DNA of 63,517 nucleotides, the filler included, from Bdellovibrionota bacterium (lineage in GTDB: Bacteria; Bdellovibrionota; Bdellovibrionia; Bdellovibrionales; JAEYZS01): assembly GCA_963169515.1 (NCBI GenBank). It is 7 parts of 7 records of this genome, joined end to end, with 100 filler letters (N's around TTAATTAATTAA, not from the genome) between each part and the next. Parts side by side here need not be neighbours in the genome. Positions count along the whole stretch, not along the records: positions 1 to 29,765 come from CAUJEF010000001.1; 6 more parts are not named here. One strand, given 5' to 3'. The notes beneath the pieces were generated by a model. The model did not search any database, had not been told where the DNA came from, and saw nothing but the letters and a program-made list of their open reading frames with translations. The translations under genes and the position numbers were made by a program. Position 1 is the stretch's first letter; each line of letters begins with the position of its first letter. Below are positions 803 to 60,583 of this stretch, one piece after another.

Positions 803-832
803 AAAAAAAAGAGCCACCTTTTCAGGTGGCTC
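803..832 (-). terminator. Rho-independent terminator downstream of the AAA+/M41 gene
   Basis: Minus strand reads GAGCCACCT-GAAA-AGGTGGCTC followed by T8. Confidence 0.85.
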
Positions 833-871: not shown

Positions 872-3800
872 TTAATTCCCTCCGAAGAGATTCAAACAAC
901 TGCCCCCTACAGGCAATTGTTTTTTCATGCTCGTCTTCCCACGAATCGGAGCTGAATTCGGTATTGGAACTTGTGATACAATTTTTTCTTTTTGCGCTTT
1001 TACAAAGTCTCCTGTCCCAGAGACAGTTTGTGGCCTTGGTAAATGCGGCAACAATTTTGAGTCTCGCGTTGTTGGTTTATATCTTGATGCAAATCGCGCC
1101 TTCAAAGACGCGGCAGAGGACGTCGTTAACTCTCTAACTGCTCCATACTTGTATGGATTTTTCACTGTTCTTTCAGAATAGAATTTATCAAGTTCTGGTT
1201 TTAATACGATCCCCTTTTCAGCCAATACCAACATCATTGGAACCAGATGAGAATCATAGTTCAATAATAAGGTCTTTCGCGCTAATGCTTGTGCCTGCTT
1301 TAAAGATTGATTAAGCAATTTTTCATACAGCTTCCGGCGGTCACCGGTTAAATCACTTGGGCTATTGGCTTTGTAATTACCCCACTCCGGGAACACGCCC
1401 GCCTTAAGAATTGCATACGTCAACACCGCATTGGCACGTTCGATATCATTGCTCTTTCCAGAATCGTCACGTGCGCCTATCGTCACAAGCTTTTGCGCTT
1501 CAGCACCACCCAGCAGGCGCGCCGCTTGTTCAATAAACGCTTGCTTTGTCATGATCATGATTTCCTTTTCATCTGTCGATGCTAAGCCTAGGTATCGAAT
1601 CCACTGGTCTTCAATATTTGCAACGCCCGGAATAATCGTGATCATATCATTCATATCCTTATCACCCATTAAAACTTGACCGACGATATTATGGCCCGCC
1701 TCATGCGCTGCTGTGATGATTTGATCTTCTGGATTAATAGTCGGAAAATACTGTCGCTCATTGCGCTCTAATCTCCATTCCAACGTACGGCCATCTGAAA
1801 CAAGAACGTCATAAATCACATCGTTGTCCGACGCTTCTGCATAGATGCTTGAAATCGTACCGCGAAATTCACGCTCGTATTTTTCTTGGCGCGCTTTTAG
1901 GACCACTTGGCTACCAGACGCTACGTTGTTTTTAACCAACAAATAACGGAGAGTGCCTTCGCTCATTGATCCGTTAATGTAGTTTCGAATACCACGACCT
2001 TGAGTTTCTGCTGTAAAGGCCGCTTCTTCAACCAGATCGACCATTCGAAGATAATCTTTTTCACTGTCGAACATCACGTCCCAGCCGCGGTCGCCCTCTA
2101 AAACTTTCATTTTCTCAACATTGCGACCGACCAATTTCATTGTCACCCGCCGAGCAGTATCAAAATTTTGCGGCCCAAACCAAATAATATTATTTTCCGG
2201 AATACGATTCACCAACGCGACCGGCATTTCTTTTTCCAGTGCGCGCCGTTGAGCGCCTCGATCCCTTAGAAACTGTCGGAACATCTCAACATAGGCAGTC
2301 ATTTTCTCTGTTTCTGGAATGTTTTTGGGAATAGCCTGATACATTTGAGCCCCAACATTTCCATTTAATACAAAAACAACATTTGTCATCGGACGTGGCT
2401 TGTTATCAGAAAATAACTTTACAACGGATTCATCAAACAGTGGGTATAATGGTACTAAAATTCTAGGATTTGTCAGAGCTGCATTTACAACTTCTTCCAA
2501 TAAAACATAGACCGTCCCGTTCCCACGATCATATTGATTCATAAAATCCGACTTTATATACGATTCTCCATTTTTTTCTCCGTAGAATTTCTTGGTCACC
2601 TCGGCTTCTGTGGTAAGCGTATTAAAGTCAACGACGAAAAGGTCGTCTGCACCGCCTGGAAGCTGATCCGCTGCGACCTCTTTTGCAACCTCAGTTTTCC
2701 CAACGCCAGAAATTCCAAGCAAAGCAATTTTTTGGGCCGGGCTGTGGTCGCTAAACTCTTTGCGTGCACGATTTTGCGAAGCTTGAATATTGGTAAAAAT
2801 CATTTCCAATTTTTCAAGCACCTGGTCTACCCCATAGACATTATCCTTCAATCGTTTTGCCATGCCAATGGCCTTAATTTTTTCATTTTGAACAGGCATC
2901 TTTGGAATATCAGCACGAGTTACACGAACTTCTTGGCGAAACAGTTCTCTTCCCGAAGTAAAATCATTGAACACTAAAAATGCGACTTTATTTTGCTGAA
3001 CTTCGATATCAAGCTTAAACTGATGCCCTTTCCCGTTATTATTCCCTTTGATCAGGCCCTGTTTTATAGCATCAAAAATTGTGTCCCGGACGACGGTATT
3101 TACCTTATCTTCAATTGGGCGAGCATTCGCTTCTGGATTATAATGATATTCTTGAATAAAATTAACCAATGCCTCACTCGGTTCGAAGGAAATGCTGCCG
3201 TAGTATCCCGTTGCCGCGTCCATAACTTCCCCAAGCTTTGCAAGCTTATCACGAGCAATCAGACGCAAGTTTTCAGGTGACGTATTTTCCATAAGGATAA
3301 GCTCCGAATCTGAAATACGATTGAGCGTTTCTTCAGAAATCCCACGACGATATTCAGAGTTTACATTGGGGCCATCGAAGGCATTTGTTTTTAAAATTTC
3401 ATCCCTTAAAATATCGGGACGATCAGCATAAAGCTCATAAGCCGCCTGGGTTTCCTCGTATGTTTTGGGACGATTTCCCACAACCCGTCCATCGGCTTCA
3501 CGCGGGGACATCAATCCAATCCCCTCGTTTGAAGCGATATCTATGTTCACAGGCACATAGAGCTCGGCTACTCCTTTACCTGGATTATTTAAAGATACAT
3601 AACCTTTTTCAATGAATTGCTTCAAAAATTCATCTTTTGCATTTCTTGACCAATTATGGAATTCATTTGCAAACAGCACCCCGAGTTCTGGGGGAAAGTA
3701 TCCATCTAAAACCATTCCCGGTTTCCAGTTGGGATTTTCTATAATATAAGGATCACCTTCCTTCATTCCCATACCCATTGGTCCATTTGTGTCTTGTTTT

Positions 3801-4879
3801 ATTTCATATCTTCCTGCTGAAAATTTCACAAGCCAGCGAATGAACGGTGTGATCCCCTCTGAGCCTTTGTACCCTGTATTAGACCCGATAACCTTCCAAA
3901 GATCTGCATCTCTTCTCATTACAGGGAGTCGGAAAAACATTGGAATTCCACCATCTAACTTCTGATAAGCTCCGATTTGATCAAACAGACCATCCACGAG
4001 CGCCTCTGTGCTCGTATCCTTTCCGTTTCCTGGTGAACCCATTTTGTAAGCTGTGACGTATGGTCGCGTGCGATGTCCAATTCCCATTGTTTTAATTTCT
4101 AAAGCTACGTTGAGGTAACGATCCTTTACTCGTTGCTGGCCGCGTATACGTTCTAAGTGCGTTTTGAATTTTTCGATTCGGGACTCATCAAAGTCAAAAT
4201 TTCTTTTCACCCCAGGTAGCCCGAGCGTCCCTTCCCGTCGAGCTACTGTTGAATCAGATTCTGTCGGCGCTTCTTTTTTCGACCTATTATCAAGGAGCGG
4301 TACTTGCGCTTTATTTTTAGCCTCCCGCTCCTTCATTCGGCGAGCAATGACGAGGTTTAAGGAACCCAGCACTGACGCAGGTTTACCCTCTACCCTTTGT
4401 TTTGCAGCAATAAGTTCATTTCGGAGCTGCTCCATATACGGACGGTTGAAAAGGTGCTTTTCTACTAACTCGACAAAACTTTCCAAGGTGTCTTTTGCAT
4501 ATATCTGTTCTAAGACGCCATTTTCAGGATTGTAGTAATGAACTTCTTTTTGTCCAATTGCGCCTAGCAACTTAATGGTTCTGAATATCATTTTTTTAAC
4601 AAGAACATTGTTCGGATCGTCCAGATTTATATCTCTATAAAACCAGTGTTCGAGTCTGACTAATGCAACAGTAAATATCTCACCAGTAGGGAATTGGGCC
4701 ATATTGGTAAACATATTGTCAGGCGGAAGATAGTCTGGATTTTCTGCCCACGCTCGAAGGACCGATTGGATCTCTCGTGGCGGTGCATTCACTGTATATG
4801 TATAATCATCGATAGATGCAGAATTTGCGGCTACAGAAAATAATACTGTGATCGACAGGATTAAGGATTTCAGTCTCAC
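872..4879 (-). CDS. Signal-peptide protein with two Clp-type AAA+ ATPase modules and a C-terminal M41 (FtsH-like) zinc protease
   Basis: Likely GTG start at 4879 with AAAGGGG RBS. Signal peptide MRLKSLILSITVLFSVAANSA; Walker A motifs GSPGNGKD and GISGVGKT; protease motifs HEAGH, LLGG and GKSND. Confidence 0.85.
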   Translation of the reverse strand: MRLKSLILSITVLFSVAANSASIDDYTYTVNAPPREIQSVLRAWAENPDYLPPDNMFTNMAQFPTGEIFTVALVRLEHWFYRDINLDDPNNVLVKKMIFRTIKLLGAIGQKEVHYYNPENGVLEQIYAKDTLESFVELVEKHLFNRPYMEQLRNELIAAKQRVEGKPASVLGSLNLVIARRMKEREAKNKAQVPLLDNRSKKEAPTESDSTVARREGTLGLPGVKRNFDFDESRIEKFKTHLERIRGQQRVKDRYLNVALEIKTMGIGHRTRPYVTAYKMGSPGNGKDTSTEALVDGLFDQIGAYQKLDGGIPMFFRLPVMRRDADLWKVIGSNTGYKGSEGITPFIRWLVKFSAGRYEIKQDTNGPMGMGMKEGDPYIIENPNWKPGMVLDGYFPPELGVLFANEFHNWSRNAKDEFLKQFIEKGYVSLNNPGKGVAELYVPVNIDIASNEGIGLMSPREADGRVVGNRPKTYEETQAAYELYADRPDILRDEILKTNAFDGPNVNSEYRRGISEETLNRISDSELILMENTSPENLRLIARDKLAKLGEVMDAATGYYGSISFEPSEALVNFIQEYHYNPEANARPIEDKVNTVVRDTIFDAIKQGLIKGNNNGKGHQFKLDIEVQQNKVAFLVFNDFTSGRELFRQEVRVTRADIPKMPVQNEKIKAIGMAKRLKDNVYGVDQVLEKLEMIFTNIQASQNRARKEFSDHSPAQKIALLGISGVGKTEVAKEVAADQLPGGADDLFVVDFNTLTTEAEVTKKFYGEKNGESYIKSDFMNQYDRGNGTVYVLLEEVVNAALTNPRILVPLYPLFDESVVKLFSDNKPRPMTNVVFVLNGNVGAQMYQAIPKNIPETEKMTAYVEMFRQFLRDRGAQRRALEKEMPVALVNRIPENNIIWFGPQNFDTARRVTMKLVGRNVEKMKVLEGDRGWDVMFDSEKDYLRMVDLVEEAAFTAETQGRGIRNYINGSMSEGTLRYLLVKNNVASGSQVVLKARQEKYEREFRGTISSIYAEASDNDVIYDVLVSDGRTLEWRLERNERQYFPTINPEDQIITAAHEAGHNIVGQVLMGDKDMNDMITIIPGVANIEDQWIRYLGLASTDEKEIMIMTKQAFIEQAARLLGGAEAQKLVTIGARDDSGKSNDIERANAVLTYAILKAGVFPEWGNYKANSPSDLTGDRRKLYEKLLNQSLKQAQALARKTLLLNYDSHLVPMMLVLAEKGIVLKPELDKFYSERTVKNPYKYGAVRELTTSSAASLKARFASRYKPTTRDSKLLPHLPRPQTVSGTGDFVKAQKEKIVSQVPIPNSAPIRGKTSMKKQLPVGGSCLNLFGGN

Positions 4880-5218
4880 GGTCGTCGCCCCTTTACAAGC
4901 CTTCACCGGTCGTGGGATACCTTAGAAAGCTTTCCCTTAAATCCTCCCCCCTCTATGCCATTTTGAAACTCTATTGCCCCTCTTGTTTCAAAATCATTTA
5001 AGATTACTCTTAACTACCCTAACAGTTCCGGCTTTAGGCCCCCGCTCTTGCGCGTTTCGTGTCAGGTGATCGTGTTTTACTGTCAAAGTGTTGAAGATTT
5101 CAAGACGGTTTCGTTATACATGAACATTTTCTATCGAGTTATAATAGTTTCCGGCAGTCAGTCTATAACAAATATTTATAGTAACAGTAAAACTATTACT
5201 TTCCGACAATTTGCTCTT

Positions 5219-5283
5219 TAAAAACGAGTTCCGCAATGTGCGATGCTCACAGTAGTAAGCAGTGCTGCCTGAGGACTGTCTGA
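5219..5283. repeat. 65-bp direct repeat, copy 1
   Basis: 61/65 identical to 6198-6262. Confidence 0.95.
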
Positions 5284-5328
5284 GATTTTTCAAAAAAAAT
5301 AATAAGTTAGATAGGGCCAAGGACGGCA

Positions 5329-5372: not shown

Positions 5373-5954
5373 CTAGCCCGATTGCAATAGTTCACGCTGA
5401 CGCTGAATAAGAACCTTCGCTACGTCTCGCCTAAATCCCTGCCCCTCAAGGCTATTTATTTTTATATAATCTTTTAATGATAAGCGCGCCTTCCAGCCAA
5501 TTACTACTCTGGTAAATGGGCGCAAGTCCCAGAATTTCGTAATTCCGACTTGGGCTTTTGTTTTCCATCGGCTCACGCCCGTTATTTTCATTGCAATAGC
5601 TGCTGTAATAGCGCGAATAAAGGGCTTATAGGTATGGCGGTTTGTAAGCTGAATTTCCAAATGAATGTGGTTTCCAACATTAGCCCCATGAAGAAGTTTC
5701 ACCTCATATTTTGTCGAGAATTTCCTCAGAATAATTTTTATGTTTTTTTTATTGTGAGGCGCCAAAAAGGACCACCCTCCCTTTGCTTGCGAAGATCTCA
5801 GAACCAGATGCATCGTTTGTCTGGTCACAATTGGGCGCCCTGAAAGGCGACCTTTTCGCTTTTTTAAAAGTTCGCCGCCGTAAGATTTTTCTGCTCTGCT
5901 AAAAAGTTCCTTTTGCATGTGAACGAAGGTATTTGAAAGCTGTCTAAATGGCAA
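5373..5954 (-). mobile_element. HUH/Y1 tyrosine transposase (IS200/RAYT-like TnpA); alternative start at 5918
   Basis: HLVLR, NHIHL (HUH motif), FWD.RPFTR and DYIKIN (catalytic Tyr). Confidence 0.8.
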
Positions 5955-13836: not shown

Positions 13837-15951
13837 CTAGTTCGCGCCTTTAGCTAATGACGCGATAAGTGCATACGGTTGTTTCCCATTTTGCCCCTGC
13901 GGCACATTTATACCTTTTACATGGATCTGATATGTGCCCCGAACGGCGCTATTTAAAAGCACCATTTCCATATTATTTACACGATCGCTGATGCTGTGAA
14001 TATCGCCATTGGGGGCAATAATTTCTACATCCAAATCGTTAACCAGTGTTTTCTGTACGGCAGCACTTGCGGGATAGTCTGTATACGCCAAATTCACGCG
14101 AATTATCGCCCCTGTTGATGCTTCCAACGAATAGGTCTTAACCTCGCCGGCACCGATGCCCACCTTGTTATCATCCAAAATGATCGGGTCCAAATATGTG
14201 ACTGAGTCCATGTCAACACGTCCATATCCTTCTTGGTTGTTAGGCGCAGGCTTTGGGATCTCTTGGGTCGGACCCACCCCATACTGCCCAGGAAATAAAT
14301 CTACCGCTGTATGGACAAGGGCGGCTTTGACAAGCGCTGCCGACGGGTTTGTTTGTTGCAATTTTTCAACTAACACTTGGCGAGTCACGGCCGCAGCACC
14401 GGCAGTCAGCGGCGTTGCCATTGATGTTCCGCCGGCATAGACATAATGTTCGTTGTATTCCCCCCATAACAATGTCGTTGCGCGGGGGTCCCGAGATCGA
14501 AGACTTACGATGTTTGTTCCCGGCGCAACAATGTCCGGTTTGATACGGCCATCTTTCGTAGGGCCGCGGGAACTAAATACGGCAATTCCGCCTTCATTAT
14601 TCGATAATTTATCGCTCCGAATTGGTTCCGCGCCCCATTTCTTTTCGCCATCCTTTAATTCAACGTGGGATTTTTGGCGGCCGCCTTCTAAAAGAAGATT
14701 TTCAGACGCTCCCACTGTTAGAGTATTCTTTGCCGTTCCAGGAGAGCCGATTGAATTTTCATCAACAACGCCGTCTTTGTTTGAATCCTGGCCACTATTT
14801 CCAGCGGCAAAAACAACCAGCATATCTGGATGATCCCACATGAATTGATCCACCTGGGCGGCAAAGTTATCATATCCACCAAGGTTTGCAGCACTTCCCC
14901 ACGAATTTGTATGAATACGTGCACCAGTGTCATATGGCTTTTGAAACACCGTTTGAAATTGCGGTGGAATGGAAATATTCCCAAAAAGATCGCTCCAAAT
15001 ACTTACTGCAACAAAGTTTGCAGCATAAGCACCGCCACGGATTTGCCCTTGGCTCATTCGACCAGTCCCCACAACAGAACCGGCAACGTGCGTCCCATGC
15101 CCTTGCGGGTCTGCCCACGAGTTTGAAAATAGACCCATAGGAATTCCTGCCTTTACGGTTTGAAGGTCCTGATGGAGATCGCTTAAATTTCCTGTATCAA
15201 GCCCTGTGTCTGCCATTGCCACCGTTTGATTTTGCCCCCTAAAACCTTGTGCCCATGCACTGTCGAATTTCATCACTTTTGTTCCAGACTCATAACCTGT
15301 TAGTGATGGCGGAGCCTCAGCAACTGAGTCTTCTTTGAAGTCCAAAAAATCAAAGGTTTCTAATTTAGGTTGAAGCTGAATCCACTCCGCTCCTTCGATC
15401 GCAGACAAATCAAAAGCGGCCGCACGCGGAGCTTTTACGACAAGCTCGTACGCTGTAAATGATATGATTTCCAAGCTTGGAATTTGGCCTAGTGCTATTT
15501 TAATTTTGTCCAGGTCGGTCCCTGGCAATAAGCGCACGTTAATTACTTCATTTTGCGACTGATCAAAGACGCTTAATCGGCCGAACTCTGGACTCAGCTT
15601 CCAGGTTGGAAGAAACGGTGTCACGTCGTAGAGCGATTTTGATGTGGCCGTTAGGATCAAAATATCTGATGTTTTAGCTTTCACAAGATAGGCGTCGTCG
15701 GGAATGTATCGAACAATTTCAATCCCCTTACTTTTTAAAATTTCTTGATCGCTTGGCTGAATCGTATTTTTGAATTGAATTATAAAGAACTCATTAAACG
15801 CATATTCACCTTGAGCTTGCCTGTGATCTAAATTTTTGAAGGAACCTTTTGTCTTTTGAATATCAACTGCACCGTTGGTAAGTAAAAGCTCTTTCGAATG
15901 TGCTGGTATTGCGAGTAAAACAAATAATAAAAATGATATTGATTTTTGCAT
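13837..15951 (-). CDS. Secreted subtilisin-like S8 serine protease (KP-43-like)
   Basis: Signal peptide; catalytic motifs DTG, HGTHVAG and GTSMATP. Confidence 0.95.
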   Translation of the reverse strand: MQKSISFLLFVLLAIPAHSKELLLTNGAVDIQKTKGSFKNLDHRQAQGEYAFNEFFIIQFKNTIQPSDQEILKSKGIEIVRYIPDDAYLVKAKTSDILILTATSKSLYDVTPFLPTWKLSPEFGRLSVFDQSQNEVINVRLLPGTDLDKIKIALGQIPSLEIISFTAYELVVKAPRAAAFDLSAIEGAEWIQLQPKLETFDFLDFKEDSVAEAPPSLTGYESGTKVMKFDSAWAQGFRGQNQTVAMADTGLDTGNLSDLHQDLQTVKAGIPMGLFSNSWADPQGHGTHVAGSVVGTGRMSQGQIRGGAYAANFVAVSIWSDLFGNISIPPQFQTVFQKPYDTGARIHTNSWGSAANLGGYDNFAAQVDQFMWDHPDMLVVFAAGNSGQDSNKDGVVDENSIGSPGTAKNTLTVGASENLLLEGGRQKSHVELKDGEKKWGAEPIRSDKLSNNEGGIAVFSSRGPTKDGRIKPDIVAPGTNIVSLRSRDPRATTLLWGEYNEHYVYAGGTSMATPLTAGAAAVTRQVLVEKLQQTNPSAALVKAALVHTAVDLFPGQYGVGPTQEIPKPAPNNQEGYGRVDMDSVTYLDPIILDDNKVGIGAGEVKTYSLEASTGAIIRVNLAYTDYPASAAVQKTLVNDLDVEIIAPNGDIHSISDRVNNMEMVLLNSAVRGTYQIHVKGINVPQGQNGKQPYALIASLAKGAN

Positions 15952-16134
15952 GCCTTCCCCCCGACTCAAAATTTGATCAAGGAATTGTAAACTTTACGAG
16001 TAGAAAATTAGCAAATCTTATGTCAACAGATGGCGTCATTAGAATATATTATCATTGGGTGATCATTCGATACGTTTTGCTTATGGTTACAGTTAAGCAT
16101 CGTCAAATTTCTTAAATTTTCTGTCAAATAGATA

Positions 16135-60356: not shown

Positions 60357-60583
60357 TAAAAGACCATATCGAGCTCTATGTTTACTATCACAATCATGTG
60401 CTTTTAGAAAAGACAGCATAAAGGGTCCCTGTTCTTAGGAATCCAGAAAACGCTTGCCATTTATGGCGAGCGCCATAGGTTTGGCCACGGATGGCCAAAT
60501 TTTCGGGATTCAAAGACAGGATGTCTTAGTTCTTTTGGTTCAAATTGACCTTTTTCCAACAATCATGTGAGCCAGTTTTAAAA

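Follow-up and report, generated by a model that had tools for sequence, protein, structure and literature searches.

The gene described here occupies positions 872-4879 (minus strand) of a stretch of 63,517 nucleotides from a Bdellovibrionota bacterium (GenBank assembly GCA_963169515.1), hereafter the window, in which seven contigs are joined with N spacers and of which only positions 1-29765 belong to the gene's own contig. Its 1335-aa product is very likely exported and is predicted with high confidence to be an ATP-dependent protease. The best explanation that we can offer, although tentatively, is a Sec-exported, single-chain, ATP-gated zinc protease, assembled in stacked rings (module 1, module 2 and an M41 peptidase), that acts on the proteins of another cell. 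Taken by itself, a site of action inside, or at the surface of, prey or host cells is slightly favoured, and the idea of an effector is plausible.

From its N-terminus the protein comprises a putative signal peptide, a variable region, two AAA+ modules of the ClpB-D2 type (modules 1 and 2), an M41 zinc metallopeptidase and a short Cys-containing tag. Comparison with Pfam identified Peptidase_M41 (aa 1048-1176, E-value 4.5e-9) and AAA_2 (aa 715-895, E-value 8.2e-8), both above the curated cut-offs; a match to ClpB_D2-small (aa 536-612, E-value 0.0035) is under the Pfam cut-off, and module 1 by itself gives no AAA_2 score in Pfam. The profiles of both modules have the D2 domain of this genome's ClpB as their top match (module 1: ClpB aa 567-844, i.e. 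D2 and not D1) and match each other with an hhalign probability of 98.8%. An AlphaFold2 (AF2) model of aa 214-1240, built from 54 alignment rows (predicted local distance difference test, pLDDT, 88.7; predicted TM-score, pTM, 0.66), overlays the D1-D2 tandem of ClpC/ClpA/ClpB as its best fold match, over >500 residues (Z 26, root-mean-square deviation 7), although the relative placement of the modules in the model may echo training structures. The initial annotation, made from the sequence by itself, had proposed that a single chain combines two D2-type AAA+ modules with an M41 peptidase; the Pfam, profile and AF2 results bear this out, and the peptidase is intact in sequence. All motifs that it quoted were located: GYKG (aa 336-339), LFANE (402-406), ARPI (586-589), GISGVGKT (722-729; positions 2693-2716), VLLEE (792-796), LVNRI (889-893), GRGI (961-964), HEAGH (1059-1063; positions 1691-1705), LLGG, GKSND, and GSPGNGKD at aa 281-288, which corresponds to positions 4016-4039 and had been placed from ~4019.

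With aa 214-1240 as the query, a full scan by HMMER retrieved 116 representatives at E <=1e-30. The counts that follow refer to a member set made of the query, five word-index homologues and the proteins P0007-P0109 (109 in total), from which 18 proteins shorter than 1150 aa were dropped to leave 91. In module 2, the Walker residues K728 and E796, the sensor-1 residue N841 and the Arg finger R892 are each found in 91/91 members, T/S729 in 90/91 and D/E795 in 88/91. Position 795 holds D in 76 and E in 12 of the 91, i.e. the EE of the query is a minority variant of the normal DE. To judge from this conservation, module 2 is a normal ATPase and is not dispensable.

Module 1 has a Walker A motif ending in GKD, the GYKG pore-1 loop, Walker B NE, sensor-1 N451, Arg finger R521, sensor-2 R587 and a family-specific insert (aa ~352-398). 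The pore loop is aromatic (Y/F/W) in 74/91 members. Asp replaces the Walker A Thr and Asn replaces the Walker B Asp, and this pair occurs in 69/91. All seven site residues are kept in 64/91 members (22 would be expected if they varied independently); between one and three are missing in 11, exactly four in none, and five to seven are missing together in 16 members that fall into 11 separate lineages of a midpoint-rooted FastTree phylogeny. The residues are thus kept or lost as a block. The module 2 site and HExxH persist in all 16 members whose module 1 has decayed, which indicates that selection acts on the odd GKD/NE site although members can do without it. R521 is lost along with K287, D288 and N405, and R892 is never lost. 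Since each Arg finger tracks the site of its own module, an arrangement in stacked rings is suggested. A single alternating ring built from three chains, considered because proteins with a signal peptide and three D2 modules exist (P0135, P0139), was rejected on the same ground. A complex prediction for a module-1 dimer with ATP scored 0.00 and was used neither way. According to the excerpted text of PMC9599734, Walker B Asp-to-Asn changes slow hydrolysis and spare binding; that excerpt does not mention the combined swap of Walker A Thr to Asp and Walker B Asp to Asn.

Aligned with FtsH (TIGR01241; PDB 2ce7, 3kds), the peptidase matches through HExxH, LLGG and G-x-x-N-D, with H1059, E1060 and H1063 in the active site and D1145 as the third zinc ligand (HExxH in 91/91 members, D1145 in 90/91), and both proteins join an AAA+ motor to M41 in one chain. 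FtsH, however, has a single AAA domain of the classic clade instead of two ClpB-D2-type modules, and a membrane anchor where our hydropathy heuristic finds a signal of the cleavable type; the TIGR01241 model scores only 37.5 bits against a cut-off of 600, and matches only aa 1047-1173. With ClpA, ClpB and ClpC (Hsp100, class 1) the protein shares two tandem AAA+ modules, but these are D2-D2 rather than D1-D2, the first not being of D1 type; it also differs in the fused peptidase and export signal, neither of which is found in the genome's own ClpB, in the GKD/NE site of module 1 and in the absence of a pore loop from module 2 (NCBIfam ClpB model: 44 bits, cut-off 1232). The protein is predicted to work like FtsH or ClpAP, yet it belongs to neither kind; the initial annotation, too, had held that its architecture fits no standard ATP-dependent protease. 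Like AAA+ proteases as a class, it has intact Walker A and B motifs, sensor 1 and Arg finger in module 2, while the aromatic pore-1 loop is carried by module 1.

ClpB-derived AAA+ proteins that work outside the cytosol include Plasmodium HSP101 of the translocon of exported proteins (PTEX), human CLPB/Skd3 and the torsins. PTEX chains and Skd3 are among the fold matches of the AF2 model, and the Torsin profile matches a sister family described below, but all three work in ATP-holding compartments of eukaryotes and lack M41. The type II AAA+ proteins NSF, p97 and Pex1/Pex6 have one slow ring that binds nucleotide and another that hydrolyses it, a split comparable to the one presumed here. These belong to the classic clade and have no peptidase, and in the present protein it is the presumed slow ring that carries the pore loop. 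Clp-type/M41 fusions also occur among Atlas clusters from phages (ClpB_D2-small + M41, 581-722 aa), and double-AAA/M41 fusions in Campylobacterota (AAA + AAA_2 + M41, 787-874 aa); both are shorter, unnamed, labelled "hypothetical" or "putative" and compared by description only. A 68-member cluster of similar size in the ESM Atlas is labelled "hypothetical", and the source names of the members themselves are "AAA family ATPase", ClpA or none. The literature searched, which consisted mostly of the main texts of open-access papers, yielded no description of this architecture.

Export was judged by a heuristic (hydropathy, charge and cleavage motif) rather than by SignalP or DeepTMHMM. The N-terminus of the query has an n-region of charge +2, an h-region of 14 residues and a small-x-small cleavage site, followed by a charge of -2; by the same heuristic a lipobox, a Tat motif and any further hydrophobic helix are absent from the protein. 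An uncharged hydrophobic stretch within the first 50 residues is present in 74/91 members, compared with 97/2172 internal windows and 855/2061 open reading frames (ORFs) of the genome. In these 74 the h-region has a median length of 13 (two reach 19), its N-side is the more positive in 62 and its C-side in three, and 57 have an AxA-type cleavage site. The short h-region, the positive N-side and the AxA sites together make up the pattern of a cleaved Sec signal (N-in, C-out). A lipobox occurs in none of the family, a Tat-like motif in one member, and a later helix in 1/91, a member with a long N-extension. The Sec-type signal peptide and the lack of a later transmembrane helix, both reported initially for the query, thus held under the heuristic, and the signal proves to be a trait of the family.

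The region between the signal and module 1, on which the initial annotation was silent, is hypervariable: the N-regions of 89 members form 53 BLAST clusters, and their mean identity to the query is 8%, compared with 29-35% for the core. For the query this region gave no Atlas match and a single-sequence AF2 model with pLDDT of 48, and no N-domain family appears among the top five Pfam matches listed for each of 36 members. We regard it as a candidate selector of substrates or targets.

A second feature absent from the initial annotation is the terminal tag. C1328 is the sole cysteine of the protein, and a Cys lies within the last 25 residues in 87/91 members (1.8% expected), with the consensus S-C-x-x-L-L/F; one of the four exceptions, P0084, carries the motif just behind the signal peptide instead. 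The same terminal Cys tag was seen in 18/18 proteins inspected from the sister family. Among 234 Sec-like, Cys-poor proteins of this genome, 14 are tagged at either mature end, and the C-terminal tag is found in 6/234 of them compared with 3/622 cytoplasmic proteins (p 0.015). A Pfam scan of 20 tag-bearing exported candidates left 15 without a match, gave three weak matches and placed two above the cut-off, one of them a protein kinase and the other an amidoligase, enzymes that both use ATP. The former (L054, G000:C31:8519-9460) is a signal-peptide-bearing Ser/Thr-type kinase ending in the Cys tag, for which no match was found in 20 related genomes; the latter (L040, G000:C84:14581-15681) is an Amidoligase_2 protein that likewise bears a signal peptide and ends in the tag. 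Four other tagged, exported proteins without a Pfam match (L039, L041, L042 and L052; G000 contigs C55, C142, C76 and C93) contain moderately hydrophobic internal stretches and, by eye, could be membrane-inserting partners of tagged cargo.

Within the genomes and loci sampled, the family (family A) was found only in Bdellovibrionota. It is present in 6/7 genomes of the organism's own taxonomic family, the seventh being 71% complete. Among 401 genomes of the phylum, 38 contain a match at 1e-40, of which 32, better than 1e-200, are family A and six are cross-hits to the sister family (family B); family B itself occurs in 40/401, both families in three genomes and either in 69/401. Family A is mostly present in one copy per genome and is kept across several classes. 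The 25 named loci are labelled as Bdellovibrionota lineages in 24 cases and as "bacterium" in one, and one metagenome-assembled genome carries the submitter's label "Bdellovibrio sp." No relative was found in viral contigs with the one search pattern used, and we found no viral origin.

Members of family B (P0143, P0145-P0147, P0151; L012, L059-L070) mostly begin with a signal peptide, and some of them have a ClpB-D1 module; to these are added two D2 modules whose Walker A is normal, an M41 domain and the Cys tag. A third, N-terminal Walker A is seen in 9/18, and in 12/18 the first D2 combines NE with the usual Thr/Ser. When the modules are arranged in a tree, the additional one of family B groups with ClpB D1 (0.999) and module 2 of family A with the last module of family B (0.97); module 1 lies on a long branch beside D1 (0.906), a placement that we do not read as resolved. 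In family A the variable N-regions occupy the place of D1. The simplest path would start from a ClpB-like D1-D2 protein in which D2 was duplicated and to which M41, a signal peptide and the tag were added, with D1 disappearing later. Proteins with two or three tandem ClpB-D2 modules and no peptidase were also encountered (P0135, which has a signal peptide, as well as P0139 and P0155); two of them are automatically named ClpA.

On the preferred reading, the protein would be exported by Sec and its signal peptide cleaved, a step well supported by the sequence. The lone terminal Cys tag would then route or tether it beyond the periplasm, probably via a secretin machine or a contact junction; the genome encodes four secretins. 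In millimolar ATP an oligomer, by analogy a hexamer, would form, in which module 1 would bind nucleotide at its charge-swapped site, hydrolyse it slowly or not at all and grip the substrate with its GYxG loop, and module 2 would serve as the working ATPase; the conservation of both sites argues that each is under selection, whereas the rates are our presumption. The variable N-domain would pick the substrate and pass it to the M41 chamber, a coupling assumed from FtsH and ClpAP. The dependence on ATP could also protect the producer, since the enzyme would stay locked in an envelope poor in ATP and become active inside the victim. We further speculate, and hold it doubtful, that uncultured Bdellovibrionota deliver a whole ATP-fuelled protease into living prey or host cells, where it runs on the victim's ATP. 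It would be one cargo of an undescribed pathway, based on Sec and the Cys tag, by which kinases and ligases travel as well, and GKD/NE would be a functional P-loop of swapped charge through which ATP is sensed and the enzyme unlocked only on arrival.

Action on another cell is suggested by effector-like traits, namely the hypervariable N-domain, the patchy range and the lack of a conserved operon; the ATP use of the tagged kinase and amidoligase and the presence of four secretins are in its favour as well. The genome, moreover, has a separate unexported ClpB and a membrane FtsH, so the exported protease is no housekeeping replacement. The same export and ATP-site data would also suit an ATP-dependent protease that serves the producer itself, in the periplasm or at the cell surface. 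Its task would be quality control of the envelope, the remodelling of machines at the surface or the breakdown of prey proteins taken up, and it would use low periplasmic or prey-leaked ATP and be tethered through the Cys tag by a disulfide or a lipid. This we consider rather unlikely. It requires no undescribed translocation step, the genome has DsbA-family genes, and mostly single-copy conservation across several classes suits a general envelope function equally well. The statement in the initial annotation that the periplasm lacks ATP is too absolute: the excerpted text of PMC7432876 reports micromolar periplasmic ATP for E. coli (~24 uM per 10^10 cells). However, ATP at micromolar concentration (as given in that excerpt), quickly hydrolysed by periplasmic nucleotidases, would drive a processive AAA+ ring poorly, and the presence of either family in just 69 of the 401 genomes and the hypervariable N-domain also speak against a function in the producer's own envelope.

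The single-copy conservation and the periplasmic ATP just mentioned weigh against action on another cell, and so do several further points. We know of no route that carries a Sec substrate of ~148 kDa into the cytoplasm of another cell. In this 96% complete genome no T6SS (type VI secretion system) VipB, no T4SS (type IV secretion system) VirB4 and no sheath family was found. The C-terminal enrichment of the tag is modest, and the tag pattern was tuned after matches had been seen. Classical threading by an active ring is doubtful, because module 2 is without the aromatic GYVG-type pore-1 loop and lacks the sensor-2 Arg in 68/91 members (position 962 in our own register: Ala in 68, Arg in 17, the query among the latter). 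The h-region test is failed by 17/91 members, some of which, by eye, look like mis-called starts. A Bd3459-like prey-rounding enzyme was found neither in this genome nor in any of the 7 genomes of its family, so the predatory habit of the organism itself is a presumption. Finally, both families A and B were found in 0/26 sampled Bdellovibrio genomes (assigned to this genus because one of the proteins is identical to Bd3459).

Release into the medium or a biofilm, where the protein would serve feeding by acting on the contents of lysed cells with spilt ATP and would not be a delivered effector, seems improbable to us: the export signal, the secretins for a second step and the wastewater, biofilm and sludge metagenomes that contain this DNA would agree with it, but spilt ATP is short-lived and ATP-independent proteases would suffice, the contig already encoding a subtilase. 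If the N-terminal hydrophobic stretch were instead an uncleaved anchor, as in FtsH, with the bulk of the protein in the cytoplasm, the problem of ATP would be solved at once, and next to FtsH the cell would have another membrane protease of that kind, driven by a Clp motor. The heuristic nature of our export call leaves some room for this, but the short h-regions, their charge pattern and AxA sites, and the occurrence of the Cys tag on other signal-bearing proteins make it quite improbable. The initial annotation had also suggested that NE and EE mark an ATP-independent scaffold, here for a periplasmic M41 protease; the decay of the module 1 site in 16/91 members points the same way, but the suggestion fails on the invariance of K, E, sensor-1 N and Arg finger in module 2, the 16 decayed members included, and on the block-wise fate of the module 1 residues, and we hold it highly improbable.

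With regard to habitat, at least half of the gene's words occur in nine sequencing runs, each from wastewater, biofilm or sludge; this DNA may itself derive from four of them. Runs in which only a small share of the words occurs were not considered. The organism is probably not a classical periplasm invader, to judge from its gene content: Bd3459-like enzymes are rare also in two other families rich in family A (1/25 and 2/25), and a single DacB/S13 gene is present here (G000:C31:29347-30618), while further copies, divergent in sequence, occur in each of the three Bdellovibrio genomes that were searched. An attached lifestyle would be a guess. Prey digestion by surface-attached predators is described as still largely uncharacterised in the excerpted text of PMC12428579.

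The protease gene is single-copy in the genome. Its GTG start at 4879 is favoured over a second in-frame GTG upstream at 4906, because a Shine-Dalgarno-like sequence lies at the appropriate place (Table 1). A comparison of neighbours over 32 related loci and the window revealed no conserved operon or immunity partner, and local synteny alone, e.g. uvrC upstream in close kin. Directly upstream lies a Y1_Tnp gene of the IS200-like/REP-associated type (5373-5954, minus strand), and the region ~5219-5305 shows loose ends in other runs, which suggests a repeat or a variable boundary. The same contig encodes a 710-aa subtilase (Peptidase_S8; 13837-15969, minus strand) adjoining carD and recG. Elsewhere in the window, 60357-60582 is a repeat with 90-96% copies on several other contigs of the genome. 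Five short contigs from two metatranscriptomes, at least 99% identical, fall within the ORF; these runs were picked by this gene and are not counted as evidence of expression.

Table 1. Features of the protease gene and its product, in window coordinates.
Feature	Position	Strand	Basis
Shine-Dalgarno-like AAAGGGG	4888..4894	-	8 nt before GTG at 4879; sequence
Sec/signal peptidase I-type signal peptide, ~aa 1-20 (predicted)	4820..4879	-	hydropathy/charge heuristic
Hypervariable N-terminal region, aa 21-231	4187..4819	-	BLAST clusters, identity to query
AAA+ module 1, ClpB-D2 type, aa 232-612	3044..4186	-	profiles, alignment, AF2
Beta-rich linker between modules, aa 613-664	2888..3043	-	AF2 secondary structure
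AAA+ module 2, ClpB-D2 type, aa 665-985	1925..2887	-	Pfam AAA_2, alignment, profiles
Linker to peptidase, aa 986-1045	1745..1924	-	AF2 model
M41 zinc metallopeptidase, aa 1046-1240	1160..1744	-	Pfam above cut-off; alignment to FtsH 2ce7
Terminal Cys tag S-C-x-x-L-F, aa 1327-1332	884..901	-	sequence; Cys counts over family
Strong intrinsic terminator, 9-bp stem + T run	811..832	-	sequence

The natural replacement of Walker A Thr by Asp together with Walker B Asp by Asn would provide a test of models of P-loop catalysis such as those treated in the excerpted text of PMC9599734. The protein is predicted to be soluble and assayable in E. coli, and its Cys tag may help to trace how it is delivered. 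The AAA+ proteases familiar from bacterial textbooks (ClpXP, ClpAP/CP, HslUV, Lon, FtsH) use ATP on the cytoplasmic side. Here, over ~90 clusters at 50% identity, a Sec signal is kept along with an ATP site that does not vary, which implies either ATP-driven proteolysis outside the producer's cytoplasm or the placing of folded enzymes in other cells by an undescribed route. The family would be categorically new if delivery is true, and otherwise a variant among AAA+ proteases.

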